Below are positions 1-56,492 of a stretch of 64,000 nt of DNA, one piece after another. Position 1 is the stretch's first letter. Each line of letters opens with the position of its first letter. The notes under the pieces were generated by a model. It searched no databases. It was not told the DNA's origin and worked only from the letters and a program-made list of their open reading frames with translations. The DNA comes from Phycisphaerales bacterium (GTDB lineage: Bacteria > Planctomycetota > Phycisphaerae > UBA1845 > UTPLA1): assembly GCA_020639075.1 (NCBI GenBank), contig JACKHI010000001.1:2662315-2726314 (forward strand), in the 5' to 3' direction. The position numbers were made by a program, and so were the translations under genes.

Positions 1-394
1 GACCATCACCAGCCTCCGGATCCTGAAGCCAATTTAGAGTCTACCGCCGACCAACTGGGATGTGTCGGAAAAACGCAGAAGCTGGTCCGCCGCGAACAGC
101 CGCACATGTCGACCTTAAAGGTGAGGCTGTCCGGGAATTCGAGTGAGGATTTCCGATTTGCAGAACCGTCCTAAACGCCAGTGTTTTTAAGGCCAACACA
201 GCTCCGAAGGAGCGACAGTTTTTAGCCACGGGTGGAGCGGAGACCGCATAGCGGTCGGAGCGCAACCCGTGGTTAGCGTTTTTTCCCTCGGGCTTAGCCC
301 TGAAAGGGCGACACAATTCCCGGACAGTCTCACCTTCAGGGTCGGCATGGCACCCTGCGTCAGCCCACTCGATCCCTATGCAAGCAACGCCCAC

Positions 395-3185: not shown

Positions 3186-3270
3186 GCCGATTTCGCCGGG
3201 TGCCACTGCCAGGTGCCACTGCTTTCAAGCAGTGCCGGACGCGAACCCGGGTGCCACTGCTCTCAAGCAG
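3186..3270. repeat. Cluster of three REP-like palindromic units (GTGCCACTGCTYTCAAGCAGTGC)
   Basis: Tandem units gggtgccactgc...; each has the stem CACTGCT/AGCAGTG with loop TTCA or CTCA. Intergenic between rpsB and lpxB. The same unit recurs at 4741-4768. Confidence 0.5.
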
Positions 3271-3520
3271 TGCAGGGCGCGAAGAAGTCCAAGTAGTTGA
3301 AAATCGCCAATTCGTCAACAAAATCGCGTTACCTGAATCGCCGCCATCGGGCCATCCGCCCGCCCGCCCCTGTTCGTCGCATCAATCGCCAGAATCCCAT
3401 GCCGAGGTCACGCAATGCCGCGTCCAAATTCCAGAACCCGAAAGTCCGATTCTGAATCGAAGTTTCGCTATTTATCGGACGTCTTGCCGTTCCGCCGTTT
3501 TGCTACCATGCTCCCGCAAA

Positions 3521-4738
3521 ATGACCATGACCGCCGACGATCTCACTTCGACCATGCCGCCCTCCGCCAACGCACAGGCTCCGCGCATTTTCGTCAGCGT
3601 CGCCGAGCAAAGCGCGGATGAGCACGCCGCGATTCTCGTTCGCGCGTTCAAACAATCGCACCCCGACGCCAGATTCAGCGGGCTCGCCGGCCCCGCCCTT
3701 CAGGCCGAGGGCGCAGAGTCCTTTGAGAACCTGACCGGCCAGTCCGCCATGGCTGCCGCCGCATTCAAGAAAATCCCTTGGGCGCTGCGCCTGATGCGTC
3801 GCGTTCGACGCTACCTGAACGCCGAACATTACGACGCCGCCGTCCTCGTCGATTCCCCCGCGCTTCATCTGCCCATGGCGAAGATCTGCCAGAGCCTCGG
3901 CATTCCCGTGCTCTTCTTCATCGCACCGCAGACGTGGGCGTGGGGACCGCCGAATTGGCGCAACCAACGCATCCGCAAGCGCGTCGATCGACTCGCCTGT
4001 ATCTGGCCCTTTGAAGAACCCTACTTTCAAAACGCCGGTATCAACGCCAGATACGTCGGGCATCCCTCATTCGATCGGCTCGCCGCGGTCGACGTCAGCC
4101 AGCAGGCCATCGACGGTCATCGACTCGGCGCCCAGCAGGTCATCTCATTGCTGCCGGGCTCGCGTCCGCACGTCATCAACGAAGTTCTGCCGGGACAGCT
4201 CGAAATCGCCACGGCCCTCGCGCGACGCTTTGCGAAACTCCGCGTCCTCGCCGTCGCAGCGAATGACGACGCGCGAAATCGAATCGAAGAACTGAACAAG
4301 AAACTCGCGCCAAACCTCCCGATCACTTTGCTCCAGGGAGACGACGCACGAGCAGAAGCGATCCGGGCCGCCGATCTCGTCCTCGTCGCGTCGGGCACTG
4401 TCACGCTCGAAGTCGCCTACTGGGCGACGCCCATGATCGTCATGTACAACTCGAATCGCTGGCTCTATCGCCTCATCGGTCGCTGGCTCATCCGCACACC
4501 GTGGCTGTCGATACCAAACATCGTCGCGCAGCGCGATCTGGTTCCGGAGTACATGCCGTACTACACATCGACCGCCCCGATCGCGGCCCAGGCGATCGAC
4601 TGGCTCAGCAATCCCCTCGCGCGACAACGCATCCGCGACGATTTGCGCCGCACGATTCAACCCCTGGTCAAAACCGGCGCCGCCGCCAACGCCGCCGAAG
4701 AACTCCGGCAACTCCTTCAACAATCAAAACGCAAGTAA
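3521..4738 (+). CDS. lpxB: Lipid-A-disaccharide synthase
   Basis: GT19-family hallmarks: RIFVSVAEQSADEHAA, LVDSPALHLPMAKICQSLGIPVLFFIAPQTWAWGP, LLPGSR, VLVASGTVTLE. Start at ATG 3521 (MTMTADDL). The upstream 534 nt of the ORF lie over REP repeats and look non-coding. Confidence 0.8.
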   Translation: MTMTADDLTSTMPPSANAQAPRIFVSVAEQSADEHAAILVRAFKQSHPDARFSGLAGPALQAEGAESFENLTGQSAMAAAAFKKIPWALRLMRRVRRYLNAEHYDAAVLVDSPALHLPMAKICQSLGIPVLFFIAPQTWAWGPPNWRNQRIRKRVDRLACIWPFEEPYFQNAGINARYVGHPSFDRLAAVDVSQQAIDGHRLGAQQVISLLPGSRPHVINEVLPGQLEIATALARRFAKLRVLAVAANDDARNRIEELNKKLAPNLPITLLQGDDARAEAIRAADLVLVASGTVTLEVAYWATPMIVMYNSNRWLYRLIGRWLIRTPWLSIPNIVAQRDLVPEYMPYYTSTAPIAAQAIDWLSNPLARQRIRDDLRRTIQPLVKTGAAANAAEELRQLLQQSKRK

Positions 4739-4740
4739 AA

Positions 4741-4768
4741 CTGGGTGCCACTGCTCTCAAGCAGTGCG
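4741..4768. repeat. REP-like palindrome, same family as 3186-3270
   Basis: ctgggtgccactgctctcaagcagtgcggc lies immediately after the lpxB stop. Confidence 0.4.
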
Positions 4769-4975
4769 GCGCTCGCGGCAACCGCCGCTGGTGCGAGATT
4801 CCCTTCGCTCGGCTGGTGCGAGAATCCCTTCTCGCACCCACTCCCCGCGGGAATCCCTTCCCGCCAAGCTGAGAAACGCACTCCCGCCCGACAAGACCAA
4901 CACCGCATGCGCAATGAAAAAGGACGGAAAATTCCGTCCTTTCTCATACATCCTAATTTTAGACAATCGTCGCAA

Positions 4976-11584: not shown

Positions 11585-11603
11585 TCCGGTGGGCACGGCC
11601 CAC
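11585..11603. repeat. 17-bp palindrome GGTGGGCACGGCCCACC
   Basis: Perfect hairpin immediately downstream of ftcD. Its mirror variant is at 13378-13394 upstream of ftcD. Confidence 0.4.
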
Positions 11604-11621
11604 CCTACGGCGCACGGCGAA

Positions 11622-13319
11622 TTACCCCTTCGTCATCGCCTTCTGCACGCTCGCAAGAATCTCCGCCTCCATCGCCTCCGCCTTGTCCTCGATCTCCTTG
11701 CCACGCGACAGAAACCCATCCCGCGCTGCCGGGTCCTTTAGATCTTTCGCATTGATCCGCACGTTCAGGTACGCCCCCTTTACGGCTGTGCGCGCACACA
11801 GCGCCGCGACGCCCGCGTCCGACGCACTGGCGGACATACCGATCTCTGCCATCTTCCTGGCAACGTCCATGCTCTCCAGCGCAACCTGCATCACGCGCAA
11901 CGGCGTCTCGATCGCGCCGACCGTTGCCGCCTGGATCGCGCGATCGCGGGCCGCATTCTCTTCGTCGTTGCCCTTGGGCAGGCCGAACGCATCCATGATC
12001 CTGTTGAATGCCTGCGTGTCCTCATCGACGAGCCGCAGCAGCTCGTCGTGATGCTTCTTGCCGCGCACGGCCCACTCGCTGAACTCCTCCCAGCGATCGT
12101 CCCAGCCGCGCTTGTGACTCGACAGGTTGGCGACCATCGTCGCCAGGGCCGCGCCGAATGCACCGACGGCCGCAGAGATGCTGCCGCCGCCCGGCGCCGG
12201 GCTTTCCGACGCTGTCTCATGCGTGAAATCCGTCAGCGTCATATCGACGAGCCGTTTCGTCTTGCCCGCGCGGGCCGCAATCGCGTATTCGATGATCTTC
12301 TCTTCCGGCTTGAACGGCGCGAGTTCGTCCATGCCCATGCTCTTGACGGCGATCTTAATCAGCTCCTTGTCGCTGACGCCGAGCGAGCGCTGCTGCTTGC
12401 GCAGGAAATACTCGCCCGCCTCGATCATGCTCTTCAGCGGCAAGAGCCCCACGACTTCGCTGCCCGTCACGCGAATGCCGCGTTCTTCCGCCTTCCTGCA
12501 ACATTCATCAAACGCAACGTGAACGGGCGTTACGCCGATGTTCGTCAGGTTCATCGAAATCTGGGCGACGCCGTATTCTTCGATGAACCAGCCGATCCCC
12601 TTGACGCATTTAAGCGAACCCGGCTCCCACATCGGCTCGCCGTTCGCGTCGTTAACGATCTTGCCCGTGACCGGATCGCCTTCGCGCTTGATGCGCCCCT
12701 TCTCGCGAATGTCGAACGCGATCGCATTCGCGCGCCGCGTGCTCGTCGTATTGAGGTTCACGTTGTAGGCGACGAGAAAGTCACGCGCGCCGACGGCCGT
12801 TGCGCCGCTCCGCGCGTTGAACTTCTCGGGGCCGAAGTCCGGTTTCCACTCCGGCTTCTTCAGCTTGTCGGCGAGCCCTTCGTACTCGCCTGCGCGAACA
12901 GTCGCCAGATTGCGACGCTCCGGCTTTGTGGCCGCGCTCTCGTAGCAATAAATCGTCAGGCCGACTTCCTCGCCGAGTCGTTTCGCGAGTTGCCGCGCGA
13001 ACACCGCCGTCTCGTCCATCGTGATATTCGCGACGGGCACGAGCGGGCAGACGTCCATCGCCCCGAAACGCGGATGCTCGCCGTGGTGTTTCGTCATGTC
13101 GATCAGTTCCGCCGCCTTGCGCCCCGCCCGAACGGCCGCCTCAATCACGGGCGCCGGTTCGCCCACGAACGTCACGACCGTGCGATTCGTCGCCGCGCCC
13201 GGATCGACGTCCAGCAACGTGACGCCGTCGACGCTCTCGATCGCGTCGGTAATCTGCTTCATGACGGCCATGTCGCGGCCTTCGGAAAAGTTGGGAACGC
13301 ATTCAATCAGTTGGGACAT
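11622..13319 (-). CDS. ftcD: Glutamate formimidoyltransferase / formiminotetrahydrofolate cyclodeaminase (bifunctional)
   Basis: N-terminus MSQLIECVPNFSEGRD is a formiminotransferase. C-terminal half (GGGSISAAVGAFGAALATMVANLS...) is the cyclodeaminase domain. Start ATG at 13319. Confidence 0.85.
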   Translation of the reverse strand: MSQLIECVPNFSEGRDMAVMKQITDAIESVDGVTLLDVDPGAATNRTVVTFVGEPAPVIEAAVRAGRKAAELIDMTKHHGEHPRFGAMDVCPLVPVANITMDETAVFARQLAKRLGEEVGLTIYCYESAATKPERRNLATVRAGEYEGLADKLKKPEWKPDFGPEKFNARSGATAVGARDFLVAYNVNLNTTSTRRANAIAFDIREKGRIKREGDPVTGKIVNDANGEPMWEPGSLKCVKGIGWFIEEYGVAQISMNLTNIGVTPVHVAFDECCRKAEERGIRVTGSEVVGLLPLKSMIEAGEYFLRKQQRSLGVSDKELIKIAVKSMGMDELAPFKPEEKIIEYAIAARAGKTKRLVDMTLTDFTHETASESPAPGGGSISAAVGAFGAALATMVANLSSHKRGWDDRWEEFSEWAVRGKKHHDELLRLVDEDTQAFNRIMDAFGLPKGNDEENAARDRAIQAATVGAIETPLRVMQVALESMDVARKMAEIGMSASASDAGVAALCARTAVKGAYLNVRINAKDLKDPAARDGFLSRGKEIEDKAEAMEAEILASVQKAMTKG

Positions 13320-13377
13320 CGTGCTGTTGCTCCGTCCTGCGGTAGGGAAAGTCGGCTTGAATTCGTCACATCGTAAT

Positions 13378-13394
13378 GTGGGCCGTGCCCACCG
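13378..13394. repeat. Palindrome GTGGGCCGTGCCCAC (mirror of 11585-11603)
   Basis: Same stem with the loop inverted, on the opposite side of ftcD. Confidence 0.4.
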
Positions 13395-13487
13395 ATCGTC
13401 CGTTAAGAGCACCGCATCCTACCACGCCGCCAATGGGGCGGGAATCTGCAGGAAATCAGCGGCAAGTCCTAGAATGCTCACGTCGCG

Positions 13488-13540
13488 CCACTGGCGGCTT
13501 GCCACGTGCCACTGGGTGCTTGCCACCCAGTGTTCAGGGC
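13488..13540. repeat. REP-like palindromes (GCCACTGG...CCAGTG family; CCCACTGGGTGCTTGCCACCCAGTG)
   Basis: cgccactggcggcttgccacgtgccactgggtgcttgccacccagtg. The same 25-bp unit recurs at 15397, 16097 and 17712. Confidence 0.45.
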
Positions 13541-13546
13541 GCAGCG

Positions 13547-13800
13547 TCAATCCCACGACCACACGGTCACTCGCGGCCGCGTCGGTGCATTCCTCCCCTC
13601 CTCTTCCGAATACGCCCACCAACTCGACCACTTCCACGCCGAAGGATGATCAACCAGCGAGCGCCGCGTCGGGTTGCGATGAATGTAGTCGATCGTTCGC
13701 CAGATCAGATCAGCACCGCGGATGTTCCGATCGAAACCGGGGCCCTCCTGCCAGAAACGAAAACAGGTTGCACCAGGTCGCTCGCGAATCGTCAGCGCGT
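13547..13800 (-). pseudogene. C-terminal fragment of an IS200-like / REP-associated tyrosine transposase (RAYT)
   Basis: FRFWQEGPGFDRNIRGADLIWRTIDYIHRNPTRRSLVDHPSAWKWSSWWAY matches the Y1-transposase C-terminal signature (WQ.GF.D..IR...DYIH.NP...LV..P.DW.WSS). The HUH/tyrosine N-terminal half is absent. The ORF's apparent first 13 codons are read from the terminus of IS copy A. Confidence 0.45.
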
Positions 13801-13813
13801 AGGTCGGGTCATC

Positions 13814-15354
13814 GACCGAATGGCATGTAGACATAACTTCTTTTACGACGCGCACTTACAAGCGGTTGCGCAATAGATGACCTCCCGTTGCAATGGTGTT
13901 GTCAAGTAAAGGCACCGTTACGACAGGAGGTCGATCATGCGTAGTTTGAGGGTTGCCGCCCGTGGGCTCAAGGGGCTTGTCGATTCCGAATGTCACTTTT
14001 CTCTTATTCCACAGGCGACCATCGATGCGATCAGTCGTGCGGTCGGGTATCGCGGCCGGCGTTGCTTTTGGACGCCGACTGTCATTGTGTGGACCTTCCT
14101 GCGACAGATCCTCGTCAGCAATTGCGCTTGCCGCGAGGCCGTCGCCATGACGATCAGCGGATCTCTCGCTCGCGATATTCAGCGACACGGCGAACCACAA
14201 TGTTCGATATCCGGTGATCCCAGCGCCTATGCACAGGCGCGTGGCAGACTCCCGCTGAAGTGGTTCGAGGCACTCCATCGGCGCATCTCCGACGATGTGT
14301 GCGGTCGCGTGGGCGACACGCTGCGCTGGTGCGGACGTCGCGTTCGCATCATCGACGGCGCGACGATCAGCATGCCGGATACGCCGGCGTTGCAGGCGGC
14401 ATTTCCGCAACCCCATGGTCAGAAGCCCGGCTGCGGTTTTCCACAACTTCGCCTGACGGCGATTTTCTGTCATGCGAGCAGCGCCCTGTTGGATCTGACG
14501 GTCGATGCGCTTCGCGTGCAGGAACTTCCCCTCTTGCGACGCATGCTCCAGCGGTTTGATTCCGGCGATGTCATCGTTGCCGATCGCGCCTATCAAAGCT
14601 ATGCAGACGTGGCGGAATGGCGACGTCACGGCATCGACGTGCTGCTGCGGCTGAATGAAGCACCGCTTCCGAATCTGCGGCCGTTGCGCCGTCTGGACCG
14701 CAACGACACGTTGATCGTGTGGCGTCGGCCGAAGAACCGCATACGACATCTTTCGCCGGAACAATGGGCGGTGTTGCCGGAATCGATGCACGTTCGACGG
14801 GTCGAAACGACTGTGGCTGCGTACGGATTCCGCACGCAGCACATCCAGGTATTGACGACCTTGCTTGACGAGGCGGCCTACTCGGCCGAATCGATTGCCG
14901 CGTTGTATCGTGATCGTTGGATGGCTGAGTTGAACCTGCGGAGCCTGAAGACAACGCTGAACATGGAAGTGCTCCGGGGAAAGTCGCCAGATATCGTTCG
15001 CAAGGAAGTGTACATGTACGCCGTGGCCTACAACCTGATTCGTTCGTTGATGTGGCGCGCGGCGAGGAGTCGCGATGGCGATCCGCGACGACTGAGTTTC
15101 GACGGAGCGCGGCAGCGAATCACAGCGATGGCGCCGTTCCTCGAAATCCTCCACGCACACAGCGATCGTGTCGCCTTGCTACAAAGACTCCTGGAACTCG
15201 TCGCCGCCGACAAGCTCCCGAATCGACCTGACCGAATCGAGCCTCGAGCCGTCAAACGCAGACCCAAGACGTACCTGCGGCTCACCCAATCACGATCCAA
15301 AATCCGCGCAAAACTCCGAAAAACTCACGCGGCTTAGCTTCATGCCATTCGGTC
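13814..15354 (+). mobile_element. IS4-family insertion sequence, copy A (about 1.54 kb)
   Basis: 14-bp perfect terminal inverted repeats GACCGAATGGCATG / CATGCCATTCGGTC. Single transposase ORF. Flanked by ggtcatcgacc on both sides (11-bp target duplication; only the 3-bp ATC overlap is also possible). Confidence 0.85.
13937..15337 (+). CDS. IS4-family DDE transposase
   Basis: 466 aa. VIVADRAYQSY and YRDRWMAELNLRSLK fit the IS4 Y-x2-R-x3-E-x6-K signature exactly. Confidence 0.9.
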   Translation: MRSLRVAARGLKGLVDSECHFSLIPQATIDAISRAVGYRGRRCFWTPTVIVWTFLRQILVSNCACREAVAMTISGSLARDIQRHGEPQCSISGDPSAYAQARGRLPLKWFEALHRRISDDVCGRVGDTLRWCGRRVRIIDGATISMPDTPALQAAFPQPHGQKPGCGFPQLRLTAIFCHASSALLDLTVDALRVQELPLLRRMLQRFDSGDVIVADRAYQSYADVAEWRRHGIDVLLRLNEAPLPNLRPLRRLDRNDTLIVWRRPKNRIRHLSPEQWAVLPESMHVRRVETTVAAYGFRTQHIQVLTTLLDEAAYSAESIAALYRDRWMAELNLRSLKTTLNMEVLRGKSPDIVRKEVYMYAVAYNLIRSLMWRAARSRDGDPRRLSFDGARQRITAMAPFLEILHAHSDRVALLQRLLELVAADKLPNRPDRIEPRAVKRRPKTYLRLTQSRSKIRAKLRKTHAA

Positions 15355-15396
15355 ATCGACCCGACATTCGCCGGAGCGTGCCGATTGCGCATCGTC

Positions 15397-15420
15397 CCAC
15401 TGGGTGCTTGCCACCCAGTG
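15397..15420. repeat. REP-like palindrome CCCACTGGGTGCTTGCCACCCAGTG
   Basis: Located 40 bp outside the right end of IS copy A. Confidence 0.45.
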
Positions 15421-15640
15421 ACACGATGTGGTTGCGCAGTGACACGATGGCAGGCAATGAGTGCACGAAAATACGACGAATCGCCCCCGATTTGGTGTAT
15501 CGAGTGAGGCCGCGGCGTGACATAGTGGATTCGTTCAACTAGAATAAAGAGATCAACTGTCCCTGTTCACGAGCTTGCGTCGACGCCCACAGCGTCGCGG
15601 AGCGTCGCTGCTCGCTCGACAATCCGGCGAGGGAGCGATC

Positions 15641-15997
15641 ATGGCAACGGAACCCCGAAACGACAACGAAAAGGAAGTCGGCGAGATCAGCAGCCTCACG
15701 GTGCTCCTTGGCCGCCTGACATGGATGGTCATCGGCCCCGCTGCCCTTGTCTATGTGATCTACTCCATCGTCTCCAGCGGAGACGGCTGGTTCACGCCAT
15801 GGGATTTCGCATTCGTGATTATCGCCGCACTCATGATCGGCGGACGCTGGATCGAACAGCGCTCCGGCGGCGCGATGACAGTCATGGGGCACCGCTCGAC
15901 GAGCGAACACTTCGCGCGCTACGTCCGCATTCTTCTTCCCGCCGCAATCGGCGCGTGGATCGTTGCGAATGTCGTCGGGAATCACTTGCTGACGTGA
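15641..15997 (+). CDS. Small hypothetical membrane protein (118 aa), bracketed by the two IS copies
   Basis: GGGAG RBS then ATG 15641. Two or three TM helices (LTWMVIGPAALVYVIYSIV; FAFVIIAALMIGG; LLPAAIGAWIVANVV). Confidence 0.5.
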   Translation: MATEPRNDNEKEVGEISSLTVLLGRLTWMVIGPAALVYVIYSIVSSGDGWFTPWDFAFVIIAALMIGGRWIEQRSGGAMTVMGHRSTSEHFARYVRILLPAAIGAWIVANVVGNHLLT

Positions 15998-16096
15998 CGC
16001 CAGTCGGGCCCGTTAGTATCAGGCAACGCGACGAACAAGAAAGCGCGTTCGCGCAAGCGACTTCCTAAATTGTGCCACCGCGTGCGCACTTCGTCC

Positions 16097-16120
16097 CACT
16101 GGGTGCTTGCCACCCAGTGC
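16097..16120. repeat. REP-like palindrome CCCACTGGGTGCTTGCCACCCAGTG
   Basis: Directly abuts the palindromic target just outside the left end of IS copy B. Confidence 0.45.
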
Positions 16121-16135
16121 GTAGGTCGGGTCATC

Positions 16136-17677
16136 GACCGAATGGCATGAAGCTAAGCCGCGTGAGTTTTTCGGAGTTTTGCGCGGATTTTGGATCGTGA
16201 TTGGGTGAGCCGCAGGTACGTCTTGGGTCTGCGTTTGACGGCTCGAGGCTCGATTCGGTCAGGTCGATTCGGGAGCTTGTCGGCGGCGACGAGTTCCAGG
16301 AGTCTTTGTAGCAAGGCGACACGATCGCTGTGTGCGTGGAGGATTTCGAGGAACGGCGCCATCGCTGTGATTCGCTGCCGCGCTCCGTCGAAACTCAGTC
16401 GTCGCGGATCGCCATCGCGACTCCTCGCCGCGCGCCACATCAACGAACGAATCAGGTTGTAGGCCACGGCGTACATGTACACTTCCTTGCGAACGATATC
16501 TGGCGACTTTCCCCGGAGCACTTCCATGTTCAGCGTTGTCTTCAGGCTCCGCAGGTTCAACTCAGCCATCCAACGATCACGATACAACGCGGCAATCGAT
16601 TCGGCCGAGTAGGCCGCCTCGTCAAGCAAGGTCGTCAATACCTGGATGTGCTGCGTGCGGAATCCGTACGCAGCCACAGTCGTTTCGACCCGTCGAACGT
16701 GCATCGATTCCGGCAACACCGCCCATTGTTCCGGCGAAAGATGTCGTATGCGGTTCTTCGGCCGACGCCACACGATCAACGTGTCGTTGCGGTCCAGACG
16801 GCGCAACGGCCGCAGATTCGGAAGCGGTGCTTCATTCAGCCGCAGCAGCACGTCGATGCCGTGACGTCGCCATTCCGCCACGTCTGCATAGCTTTGATAG
16901 GCGCGATCGGCAACGATGACATCGCCGGAATCAAACCGCTGGAGCATGCGTCGCAAGAGGGGAAGTTCCTGCACGCGAAGCGCATCGACCGTCAGATCCA
17001 ACAGGGCGCTGCTCGCATGACAGAAAATCGCCGTCAGGCGAAGTTGTGGAAAACCGCAGCCGGGCTTCTGACCATGGGGTTGCGGAAATGCCGCCTGCAA
17101 CGCCGGCGTATCCGGCATGCTGATCGTCGCGCCGTCGATGATGCGAACGCGACGTCCGCACCAGCGCAGCGTGTCGCCCACGCGACCGCACACATCGTCG
17201 GAGATGCGCCGATGGAGTGCCTCGAACCACTTCAGCGGGAGTCTGCCACGCGCCTGTGCATAGGCGCTGGGATCACCGGATATCGAACATTGTGGTTCGC
17301 CGTGTCGCTGAATATCGCGAGCGAGAGATCCGCTGATCGTCATGGCGACGGCCTCGCGGCAAGCGCAATTGCTGACGAGGATCTGTCGCAGGAAGGTCCA
17401 CACAATGACAGTCGGCGTCCAAAAGCAACGCCGGCCGCGATACCCGACCGCACGACTGATCGCATCGATGGTCGCCTGTGGAATAAGAGAAAAGTGACAT
17501 TCGGAATCGACAAGCCCCTTGAGCCCGCGGGCGGCAACCCTCAAACTACGCATGATCGACCTCCTGTCGTAACGGTGCCTTTACTTGACAACACCATTGC
17601 AACGGGAGGTCATCTATTGCGCAACCGCTTGTAAGTGCGCGTCGTAAAAGAAGTTATGTCTACATGCCATTCGGTCA
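16136..17677 (-). mobile_element. IS4-family insertion sequence, copy B (inverted relative to A)
   Basis: Interior is the reverse complement of copy A with a single nucleotide difference (the paired antisense shadow ORFs 13856-15160 and 16330-17634 differ T vs A, and the overlapping 65-aa shadow ORFs V vs A; the 466-aa transposase proteins are identical). Same 14-bp IRs and identical flanking target sequence. Confidence 0.85.
16153..17553 (-). CDS. IS4-family DDE transposase (copy B)
   Basis: Protein identical to 13937..15337. Confidence 0.9.
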   Translation of the reverse strand: MRSLRVAARGLKGLVDSECHFSLIPQATIDAISRAVGYRGRRCFWTPTVIVWTFLRQILVSNCACREAVAMTISGSLARDIQRHGEPQCSISGDPSAYAQARGRLPLKWFEALHRRISDDVCGRVGDTLRWCGRRVRIIDGATISMPDTPALQAAFPQPHGQKPGCGFPQLRLTAIFCHASSALLDLTVDALRVQELPLLRRMLQRFDSGDVIVADRAYQSYADVAEWRRHGIDVLLRLNEAPLPNLRPLRRLDRNDTLIVWRRPKNRIRHLSPEQWAVLPESMHVRRVETTVAAYGFRTQHIQVLTTLLDEAAYSAESIAALYRDRWMAELNLRSLKTTLNMEVLRGKSPDIVRKEVYMYAVAYNLIRSLMWRAARSRDGDPRRLSFDGARQRITAMAPFLEILHAHSDRVALLQRLLELVAADKLPNRPDRIEPRAVKRRPKTYLRLTQSRSKIRAKLRKTHAA

Positions 17678-17711
17678 TCGACCCGACATTCGCGGGCGCG
17701 TACCGATTGCG

Positions 17712-17735
17712 CATCGTCCCACTGGGTGCTTGCCC
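17712..17735. repeat. Truncated REP-like palindrome (CCCACTGGGTGCTTGCCCGAAGC)
   Basis: Same spacing from the right end of IS B as 15397-15420 from the right end of IS A. The 3' arm is degenerate. Confidence 0.35.
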
Positions 17736-50054: not shown

Positions 50055-50882
50055 ATGTCTCGACTGGGCGACATCGAATCAACCATCGTTTCTCGACTCT
50101 CAACAGCAACCGTGGCTGGCAGCCCGGCATATGCGACGATCGAAGGCGTCAGCGGCGGCAATCGAGCCGCGCTCCGCGAGGCACTGCGACGTGAACGAAT
50201 GCCGGCGGCCTACGTCTCCTTCGTCGATGAACCGTTGGCGCCGGAGGTGCGAGAGGCGATTCGCGGCTCGAGGTTTGCGGTGCTCGTCGCCGATCGAACG
50301 TTGCGACCGGCGTCGGATCCGAGGCTGGGTGACGAGTCGACGCCCGGAACATTCGCCCTGCTGGATGCGGCCCAGGCCGTACTGGACGACTTCTCTCCGG
50401 CGGCGGGGACTCGTCTTGTCGCTATTCAGGCGCGATTCGTCGAGGCGGATGATCGCGTCGGCATGTATGAACTGCTCTATCGCGCGTGGCCGATCGACGA
50501 GGTCGCACCAAGCGTGCTGGAATTCGATGGAAGCACGATCGCCGGCGCGCTCAGCGAATTGCGTGCGGACATCGGAAGTTTTCGCGTCGTGCCCGAGGAT
50601 CCGGAGGCCGATCCGCCTTGGACGTATGTCAACACGTCGCGCCCCATCGTCTGGCGCGGAGAGATTCGCTCGACGACCCATGCGGCGATGTGGGCGATCG
50701 AAGACAACATCGAGGCGCTCATCGCGGCGCGAACCGTCGCAACGCTCAAAAGCGTCCACGGTCAAAACCTCGACGACTGCCTGATCGAGCGGTACGAGCG
50801 CGTCGGGGCGCGGCGGATCGTCGGGACGCGCATTACGCAGCCCGCGGCGATTCACTTCTCGCAGTTGACGCCGGTGCCGTAG
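50055..50882 (+). CDS. Mu gp37-like protein (DUF1834-like), last phage-type gene of the module
   Basis: Position after the gp36-like gene. GAAAGAGGA RBS before ATG 50055. Its last 250 bp are duplicated at 56238-56492. Confidence 0.5.
   Translation: MSRLGDIESTIVSRLSTATVAGSPAYATIEGVSGGNRAALREALRRERMPAAYVSFVDEPLAPEVREAIRGSRFAVLVADRTLRPASDPRLGDESTPGTFALLDAAQAVLDDFSPAAGTRLVAIQARFVEADDRVGMYELLYRAWPIDEVAPSVLEFDGSTIAGALSELRADIGSFRVVPEDPEADPPWTYVNTSRPIVWRGEIRSTTHAAMWAIEDNIEALIAARTVATLKSVHGQNLDDCLIERYERVGARRIVGTRITQPAAIHFSQLTPVP
50632..50882. repeat. Direct repeat copy 1 (3' end of the gp37-like gene including its stop)
   Basis: Near-identical (about 5 mismatches in 250 bp) to 56238-56492. Confidence 0.8.
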
Positions 50883-56237: not shown

Positions 56238-56492
56238 GAATGCGCGTCGCGCCCCATCATCTGGCGCGGAGAGATTCGCTCGACGACCCATGCGGCGATG
56301 TGGGCGATCGAAGACAACATCGAGGCGCTCATCGCGGCGCGAACCGTCGCAACGCTCAAAAGCGTCCACGGTCAGAACCTCGACGACTGCCTGATCGAGC
56401 GGTACGAGCGCGTCGGGGCGCGGCGGATCGTCGGGACGCGCATCACGCAACCCGCGGCGATTCACTTCTCGCAGTTGACGCCGGTGCCGTAG
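56238..56492 (+). pseudogene. Truncated duplicate of the gp37-like 3' end (direct repeat copy 2)
   Basis: Encodes ...RPIIWRGEIRSTTHAAMWAIEDNIEALIAARTVATLKSVHGQNLDDCLIERYERVGARRIVGTRITQPAAIHFSQLTPVP*, identical to the C-terminus of 50055..50882 apart from a few SNPs. No start codon or N-terminal region. Confidence 0.75.

Follow-up and report, generated by a model that had tools for sequence, protein, structure and literature searches.

The 64,000-nucleotide stretch of DNA analysed here (hereafter the window; positions 2,662,315 to 2,726,314 of contig JACKHI010000001.1 in the Phycisphaerales bacterium assembly GCA_020639075.1) carries two near-identical copies, A and B, of an insertion sequence (IS), each lodged within a short palindromic hairpin resembling a repetitive extragenic palindrome (REP). 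The coordinates of the copies and of the features around them are collected in Table 1. Both copies end in perfect 10-bp terminal inverted repeats (GAATGGCATG), and this tip sequence occurs four times in the window, namely at the four IS ends; the expectation from shuffled sequences is 0.25, and none of 100 shuffles reached four. Directly outside the ends lies an 11-bp direct repeat, GGTCATCGACC, which is also found four times, on the forward strand only, where shuffles predict 0.12 occurrences. Copy A and the reverse complement of copy B differ by a single, synonymous substitution within 1533 bp (13963, T versus C). The two target hairpins are 789 bp apart and share the same orientation, and the inner junctions consist of the tail half of one hairpin and the head half of the other. 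On the right, the sites have 62 nt in common past the IS end with a few mismatches, within a 75-nt repeat that is 95% identical between them; on the left, the common flank extends over 21 nt (GCGTAGGTCGGGTCATCGACC).

Since each IS possesses its own hairpin halves, the two hairpins were hit separately, and copies A and B are independent insertions in opposite orientations. The IS has been active recently, given the one-nucleotide difference between the copies and the 99.6-100% identity of copies at four other loci described below. A previous sequence-only reading of this stretch had proposed near-twin IS4-family copies in opposite orientation with identical junctions, recent transposition, and two independent insertions into a hairpin target with an 11-bp duplication; the coordinates were confirmed and all of these proposals are borne out. 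Two other arrangements were considered and rejected. A composite transposon would carry the duplication at its outer ends only, whereas here each IS has its own matching hairpin halves, and inversion of the segment between the copies by recombination would pair ATC with GAT, in conflict with the perfect direct repeats at both copies. The intervening segment contains a small open reading frame (ORF) for a probable membrane protein without a Pfam match; located between inverted IS copies, it could in principle be mobilized as part of a composite transposon, but no evidence for mobility was seen.

The transposase is the product of a single ORF. It matches Pfam DDE_Tnp_1 (E 3.5e-24) as well as the NCBIfam model NF033592 (transpos_IS4_1), at 208.5 bits where the cutoff is 115, and scores far under the cutoffs of the IS701, IS1634, IS1380 and IS1182 models. 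The predicted DDE residues, whose catalytic role is assigned from motifs, are D140 (IIDGAT), D216 (VADRAY) and E331, with spacings of 75 and 114, and a YREK motif, YRDRWMAELNLRSLK, spans residues Y324-K338. The Escherichia coli IS4 transposase InsG is 27% identical to the protein over 360 residues (E 3e-28), and the motifs of the two align (IDG, MDKGY and YSHRWEIELGYREIK in InsG). A sequence search of the PDB with the transposase gave no match at E 0.01. The IS4 family is characterized by D(60-110)D(100-150)E spacing, a Y(2)R(3)E(6)K motif and a single-ORF transposase (PMC2266710), and the ORF organization, DDE spacing, YREK motif and profile score of the present protein all agree with this definition. 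Subgroup IS4 includes elements of 1400-1650 bp with the terminal consensus '-AATR' and target duplications of 10-13 bp (PMC2266710, Table 1 therein), compared with 1533 bp, GAATG tips and an 11-bp duplication here, and 10-12 bp in relatives. Judged by these features, the element is a member of the IS4 family, displaying the size, tips and duplication of subgroup IS4.

The 5' untranslated region of the transposase gene contains a further conserved feature, an anti-Shine-Dalgarno stem (GACCTCC / GGAGGTC) that is kept in nine relatives with compensatory changes from A-U to G-C. Such a stem would probably sequester the ribosome-binding site of the transposase gene and thereby limit translation from read-through transcripts, a property of other IS4-family elements such as IS10.

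The target hairpin is 5'-GTAG-GTCGGGTC-ATC-GACCCGAC-3'. The sequence-only reading had envisaged a larger target, an uninterrupted 31-bp palindrome embedded in a composite repeat akin to a bacterial interspersed mosaic element, and this part does not stand. The 31-bp unit has an internal TAG/ATT mismatch and folds into an 8-bp stem with a 3-nt loop and a few outer pairs (-11.5 kcal/mol as single-stranded DNA, z -3.9); what other sites have in common with it is no more than the inner 19 bp plus the 5' GTAG, and the second hairpin and the linker of about 30 nt that adjoin the target in the window are absent from the other insertion sites. A scan of a genome collection for TAGGTCGGGTCATCGACCCGAC returned at least 93 stretches, and those listed derive nearly all from metagenome-assembled genomes (MAGs) of Phycisphaerae/Planctomycetota, representing many species. 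Among the 125 intact hairpins in them, the base at position -4, which lies outside the search pattern, is G in 120, yielding the GTAG head, and the base 3' of the hairpin is a purine in 119; further out, the flanks are unconserved, which likewise argues against a composite target. The intact hairpins in the matches listed often form +/- doublets 20-110 bp apart, and tandem clusters are present in one contig that also carries the IS (L002). The hairpin family is thus spread through Phycisphaerae/Planctomycetota genomes. The exact 22-nt hairpin, often in tight inverted doublets, was also found in MAGs labelled Alphaproteobacteria, Armatimonadota and Campylobacterales (L040, L049 and L075, which are JANQQE01 contigs of 379-892 kb, and L046 and L050), reflecting either mislabelled or misbinned sequence or spread of the repeat family across phyla. 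A GTAG directly 5' of the palindrome is a conserved REP feature, needed by E. coli TnpA(REP) for binding and cleavage (PMC3333891), and the present target, a short palindromic hairpin with a conserved 5' GTAG, shows this hallmark. No gene for a REP-associated tyrosine transposase (RAYT) flanked by the target hairpin was found in a search that was not exhaustive, and tblastn with the transposase and with a RAYT remnant located in the window revealed no relatives at the hairpin loci of other species.

Further copies of the IS, which for the purposes of this census are those retrievable by exact protein look-up, reside in the sister assemblies GCA_020639055.1 and GCA_020639025.1 and in an assembly of a sequencing run. 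Four of these loci (L001-L004) are 99.6-100% identical to the window copies, the copy in L002 being 100% identical to copy A, and their neighbouring genes are unrelated. Including the two window sites, there are six distinct sites of the IS at 99.6% identity or more; all six are intergenic and all involve the same hairpin, interrupted at the same nucleotide position. Five of the six retain both hairpin halves and the 11-bp direct repeat. L001 and L002 have the arrangement ...GTAGGTCGGGTCATCGACC | IS | GGTCATCGACCCGAC..., and L003 is its reverse complement. The sixth site, L004 (1-1573), lies at the end of a contig, where the left flank extends over only 20 nt, and has the GTAG head half on both sides, with ATC on the left and GAT on the right; this hybrid was produced either by recombination between copies or by an assembly artefact at the contig end. 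Intact, empty hairpin cores lie near the IS in L001 and L002 (three each), and none remain in the window. When the IS copies are removed from the window in silico, 47 perfect hairpins (stem of at least 7 bp, loop of 3-6 nt) are counted; of these, the two that belong to the GTCGGGTC family both carry the IS, and the remaining 45 are free of it.

The same preference extends to relatives of the IS. An element at 81% transposase identity (L100/L101) from unrelated metagenomes uses the same target with the same duplication, and one at 87% (L099), from an unrelated metagenome, has the same left junction. A 59% relative (L103/L104) is inserted into the variant GTAG-GTCGGGTCTGCAGACCCGAC, where the cut again follows GTCG in each arm and the 12-bp duplication contains one mismatch. 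A 56% relative (L122) occupies a similar hairpin variant and has an intact copy of it nearby. The GTAG head is at the transposase-proximal end in copy A, L001, L002 and L100, and at the distal end in copy B, L003 and L103; the head half flanking copy A recurs beside the IS in L001, L002 and L100. A metagenome scan for the left tip of the IS (GAATGGCATGTAGACATAAC) gave no match, and a protein-based metagenome scan gave two distant relatives only, at 31-37% identity. An association in which all six sites share one position and broken REP halves flank the IS is of type 1 in the classification of REP-associated elements (PMC1525189). The sequence-only reading had suggested target specificity, to be checked by the flanks of other copies and by a search for empty sites, and both checks came out in its favour: the six sites and the 81% and 87% relatives share one hairpin and one position, and intact hairpins exist beside the IS in L001 and L002 as well as in the MAG stretches. 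The specificity for the target is therefore real and does not reflect a local duplication.

The symmetry of the insertions suggests how this specificity might be achieved. DDE/YREK transposases of the Tn5/Tn10 type act by cut-and-paste within a two-fold symmetric transpososome. In the present case, the strand-transfer points are separated by 11 bp and placed symmetrically around the dyad of the hairpin, each following GTCG in the half-site GTCG^GGTC of its strand, and cuts at these points yield the duplication GGTCATCGACC. Owing to the two-fold symmetry of the arms, insertion in either orientation leaves identical junctions on the forward strand. The duplication is 11 bp at the odd-length palindrome and 12 bp at the even-length variant. 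IS4-family enzymes are known to act on duplex target DNA, attacking its strands at points staggered by roughly a helical turn (PMC2266710). We propose that each transposase subunit would read one arm of the duplex palindrome, leaving the asymmetric GTAG head and the loop unread; the use of both orientations without bias would follow from subunits that read the arms instead of the head or loop. Taken together, it is very likely that the window contains a recently active 1533-bp IS of the IS4 family whose specific target is the centre of hairpins from a single GTAG-headed REP-like family, and that the two window hairpins were hit independently, once in each orientation.

Distant relatives help to define the boundaries of the element. 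Those at 46-49% identity have exactly the tips GAATGGCATG/CATGCCATTC, yet lie between unrelated direct repeats of 10-11 bp that neither start with GGTC nor end with GACC, which sets the IS boundary at GAATGG and the length of the duplication at 10-12 bp. Relative P0096 has duplicated GGGTCCGTCCC (11 bp; L115/L118) within the palindrome AAAATAGGG-TCCGT-CCCTATTTT, and GGGACGGTAAC (11 bp; L116 + L119, hybrid contigs) within the palindrome GAAACCTGG-...-CCAGGTTTC; for P0060 (L120) the repeat is GTACCGGAC(A/C)C (11 bp), with no clear palindrome, and for P0071 (L105) it is CTCCCTACCC (10 bp), with a non-palindromic CCCTAC core. In L115, the locus of a 47% relative, the target palindrome of this relative flanks a gene for a RAYT-like protein of 233 aa on both sides, so that targets of REP type recur in the clade. 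The P0071 lineage (49% identity; L105-L114) is represented by metagenome contigs with many hybrid flank combinations, its 10-bp duplications being centred on CCCTAC (or, read on the opposite strand, GTAGGG), as in CTCCCTACCC and GACCCTACCT, and its insertion in L114 directly adjoins a GTAG-headed hairpin; this lineage seems to target a motif like the REP head, not the hairpin centre. In a 31% relative (L134, around 100 and 1590), the GAATGCCAT-type tips are bordered on the outside by 21 nt that are inverted, not direct, and contain the hairpin GCCGAC-gagggc-GTCGGC, indicating either terminal repeats of greater length or an element that landed between two hairpins in inverted orientation.

Several observations weigh against the interpretation of the IS as an element that reads duplex REP-like arms. 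The flanks of L004 are not direct, comprising two head halves, and recombination or an artefact has to be invoked for this site. Copies of the IS outside REPs may be present in the source genome. The choice between an 11-bp and a 3-bp duplication depends on the relatives, because both parses predict the same empty site for the IS itself. The target would count as a true RAYT-type REP by its GTAG head, hairpin, copy number and doublets only. Finally, the 47% relative uses two palindromes unrelated in sequence, both cut dyad-symmetrically with 11-bp duplications, as would fit guidance by structure; recognition of an extruded hairpin or cruciform is the main alternative to reading of the duplex sequence.

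According to this alternative, the transposase recognizes an extruded cruciform or a single-stranded hairpin and not the sequence of the duplex arms. Apart from the two palindromes of the 47% relative, it gains from the strong single-strand fold of the target and from the duplication lengths of 11 bp at the odd and 12 bp at the even palindrome, which imply that the dyad sets the cut positions. Yet a transposase guided by structure would hardly be expected to confine itself to one hairpin family and spare the other perfect hairpins of the window, or to use both orientations, unlike elements that target single-stranded hairpins; furthermore, the 49% relative targets 10-bp sites with a non-palindromic core, and known IS4-family transposases capture duplex target DNA. 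We thus regard structure-directed targeting as unlikely, albeit not negligible. The single-strand hairpin-targeting class itself (IS200/IS605, IS110/IS1111), characterized by an HUH (Y1) or DEDD enzyme, no or a very short duplication and a fixed orientation, does not accommodate an element with a DDE_Tnp_1 transposase, an 11-bp duplication and insertions in both orientations.

The parse with a shorter duplication, offered as an option by the sequence-only reading, would make the element a 1541-bp IS with 14-bp inverted repeats (GACCGAATGGCATG) instead of 10-bp ones and a 3-bp duplication of the ATC loop. It predicts the same empty site as the 11-bp parse for every copy and for the close relatives. 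However, the relatives at 46-49% identity with exact GAATGGCATG tips have the repeats GGGTCCGTCCC, GGGACGGTAAC and CTCCCTACCC, which lack the GGTC and GACC that would have to belong to the element; moreover, the IS4 copy of E. coli K-12, with TAATGCC tips, has a duplication of 12 bp. Duplications in the IS4 family measure roughly a helical turn, with 10-13 bp as the range for subgroup IS4 (PMC2266710). The shorter parse is accordingly very improbable, and we retain the 11-bp duplication.

The remaining explanations can be dealt with briefly. That the hairpin halves are part of the element, a roughly 1575-bp IS with imperfect inverted repeats of about 31 bp and no target duplication, might be surmised from the 34-nt arms spanning flank and tip, which are 82% complementary, and from the inverted outer flanks of the 31% relative, but is scarcely credible given that the central ATC is direct, not inverted, on both sides of each copy, that the intact hairpin exists in at least 93 stretches elsewhere, at which tblastn finds no IS relative, and that the flanks of relatives sharing the tips are quite different. 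A local event in which a single insertion was duplicated and inverted, with junctions common by descent, would agree with the proximity of the two sites and with the additional 50 nt or so of common right flank beyond the target hairpin; this scenario is next to untenable, because the IS is inverted but the forward-strand orientation of the hairpin halves and of the ATC loop is unchanged (an inverted segment would carry GAT), because the left flanks cease to match at 21 nt from the IS, and because four other contig sites and the 81% and 87% relatives have the same junctions in unrelated contexts, the different neighbouring genes arguing against mis-assembly of the window locus as L001-L004. 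Random insertion followed by persistence only in harmless intergenic repeats, to which the intergenic location of all observed sites would conform, can hardly be right either, for selection cannot explain the nucleotide-exact reuse of one position in 19 bp at six sites, and again in the 81% and 87% relatives, with other intergenic DNA and other hairpins left untouched.

Table 1. Location of the insertion sequence copies, their targets and other features within the 64-kb window.
Feature	Coordinates	Strand	Remarks
IS copy A	13818..15350	+	1533 bp, bounded by GAATGGCATG / CATGCCATTC; subgroup IS4-like
IS copy B	16140..17672	-	1533 bp, inverted relative to copy A
Transposase gene, copy A	13937..15337	+	466 aa, single ORF without frameshift
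Transposase gene, copy B	16153..17553	-	466 aa, protein identical to the product of copy A
Tip GAATGGCATG, four IS ends	13818; 15341; 16140; 17663	+; -; +; -	
Left 11-bp duplication GGTCATCGACC, site A	13807..13817	+	
Right 11-bp duplication, site A	15351..15361	+	
Head half of target REP 1 (REP-like)	13799..13817	+	GTAG + GTCGGGTC + ATC + GACC
Tail half of target REP 1	15351..15365	+	GGTC ATC GACCCGAC
Head half of target REP 2 (REP-like)	16121..16139	+	GTAG + GTCGGGTCATCGACC; left duplication at 16129-16139
Tail half of target REP 2	17673..17687	+	right duplication at 17673-17683
Right flank common to both sites	15351-15412; 17673-17734		62 nt
Anti-Shine-Dalgarno stem	13879-13885 with 13926-13932		5' untranslated region of copy A; mirrored in copy B
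Small ORF between the IS copies	15641-15997	+	probable membrane protein
Linker common to right flanks	15366..15395; second copy 17688-17717	+	local to the window
Second hairpin CCCACTGGGTGCTTGCCACCCAGTG	15396..15420; further copy 16095-16119	+	
Second hairpin, further copies	13508-13532; 17718-17734		one mismatch; truncated
Truncated RAYT remnant	13547..13795	-	adjoins the head of REP 1; without N-terminal HUH region
Hairpins of another GTAG-headed family	11587-11609; 13372-13394		inverted relative to each other
Formiminotransferase-cyclodeaminase gene	11622-13412		
Hairpin repeat family GGGTGCCACTGCTCTCAAGCAGTGC	3206-3281; 4738-4775		three copies, two in tandem
Element of about 245 bp	105-349		bounded by 35-nt inverted repeats
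248-nt direct repeat	50635-50882; 56245-56492		98% identity, 5.6 kb apart

Next to the targets, the window harbours a second hairpin (CCCACTGGGTG...), which was not found near the IS in L001-L004 or L099-L101; it represents a different REP family that is not needed for insertion of the IS. The tested motif of the linker joining it to the target occurs in the window only, twice. The RAYT remnant adjoining the first target matches the C-terminal part of the NCBIfam model REP_Tyr_transpos (E 5.4e-7, profile positions 103-146 of 146), and its sequence is annotated as a hypothetical protein in a Phycisphaerales MAG. Its homologues (P0122-P0131) contain, upstream of the segment that aligns, the HUH motif MPEHVHLL, indicating that the window copy is truncated. 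Intact homologues (L125-L127) are flanked by inverted hairpins of the form GTGCCACTGGC-nnn-GCCAGTG, and these resemble the second hairpin, GCCACTGGGTG-cttgc-CACCCAGTG, just past the stop of the remnant (the copy starting at 13508), for which reason we take the second hairpin to represent the REP family of the remnant itself. The possibility that the remnant derives from the cognate enzyme of the target hairpin was considered and is not supported, the homologues being flanked by a different hairpin family.

The window contains several additional repeats. Hairpins of another GTAG-headed family (CGTAG-GGTGGGC-CGT-GCCCACC) bracket the formiminotransferase-cyclodeaminase gene and are not used by the IS. 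The head of the GGGTGCCACTGCTCTCAAGCAGTGC hairpins resembles the hairpins beside the RAYT homologues in L125-L127. The element of about 245 bp, whose terminal inverted repeats are 89% complementary, has a 95% identical copy in a sister assembly (L003, 1327-1551) and looks like a miniature non-autonomous transposable element. The direct repeat of 248 nt completes the list (Table 1).

REPs are targets of IS from five families (PMC1525189), and the closest parallel to the present case is ISRm22, an IS4-family element of Sinorhizobium meliloti 1021, all copies of which are found in REPs, with insertion 'just at the palindromy axis', often in REP clusters, with a 6-bp duplication and with some hybrid, non-direct repeats that have been ascribed to recombination between copies (PMC1525189). 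The element described here is likewise an IS4-family DDE element flanked by REP halves and inserted at the axis, and hybrid repeats and clusters were observed here too. It differs from ISRm22, as the latter has been described, in the GAATG tips, in its 11-bp rather than 6-bp duplication, in the sequence of the REP and in its host, a member of Planctomycetota as opposed to Alphaproteobacteria. ISRm22 belongs to subgroup IS4Sa, and a 'spectacular' specificity for the target arms has been noted for subgroup IS4 (PMC2266710), with which our element shares its size and duplication length. Like IS4 of E. coli, it has a single-ORF DDE/YREK transposase and similar tips (TAATGCC in IS4, GAATGGC here), but sequence identity is low and the target is a GTAG-headed REP-like hairpin of Phycisphaerae. 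The novelty that the sequence-only reading had implied in treating hairpin targeting as foreign to the IS4 family is therefore not upheld: descriptions of REP-targeting IS, one of them from the IS4 family, go back to 2006, which leaves current understanding unchanged, and the present element is a new example from a new phylum.

Comparisons can be drawn with elements of other groups. IS1397 and ISKpn1 (IS3 family) and IS621, ISPpu9, ISPpu10 and ISPa11 (IS110 family) have every copy at one fixed position of a REP (PMC1525189), a feature they share with our element, whereas the chemistry of their transposases is different. The IS110 group employs a DEDD recombinase guided by bridge/seek RNA (PMC11208160, PMC11187229); the element in the window has a DDE transposase, an 11-bp dyad-symmetric duplication and insertions in both orientations. 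Within the IS4 family, the overall shape of the duplication in the window, GGTCATCGACC, and in a relative, GGGTCCGTCCC, invites comparison with IS231A. The latter reportedly generates duplications of about 11 bp with the symmetric consensus GGG(N)5CCC, as Hallet and colleagues are said to have found in 1994, and the two sequences above fit this shape. By contrast, IS231 tips start with CAT, the host phylum is different, and the IS231A consensus is a short motif and not a genomic REP family; IS231A, of subgroup IS231, is listed among IS4-family elements with insertion specificity (PMC2266710).

The relatives sharing the GAATGGCATG tips raise the broader question of how the targets of this clade diversified. 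Conceivably, the whole clade is specialized for the dyads of REP palindromes, with individual lineages retargeted to different REP families, sometimes beside RAYT genes, and with a stagger that flexes between 10, 11 and 12 bp to stay centred on the dyad; we put this forward as a speculation that is more probably wrong than right by a wide measure. If true, it would mean that target capture in a Tn5-like transpososome can be guided by symmetry or by an extruded structure in place of a fixed spacing, and that an IS lineage has tracked RAYT/REP systems across Planctomycetota.

Independently of this speculation, the IS and its target define a GTAG-headed REP-like repeat family common to many Phycisphaerae MAGs, and the relatives with the same tips and different palindromic targets could be used for mapping the determinants of target recognition in Tn5-like transposases. 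For genome annotation, the identical junctions of neighbouring copies are explained without a duplication, and the hairpins should be flagged as assembly-breaking hotspots of IS insertion. The element provides a clean natural case, from a phylum that has received little study, of an IS4-family DDE transposase whose choice of target is near-absolute, and REPs, being intergenic and repeated, offer such an IS many harmless landing sites.

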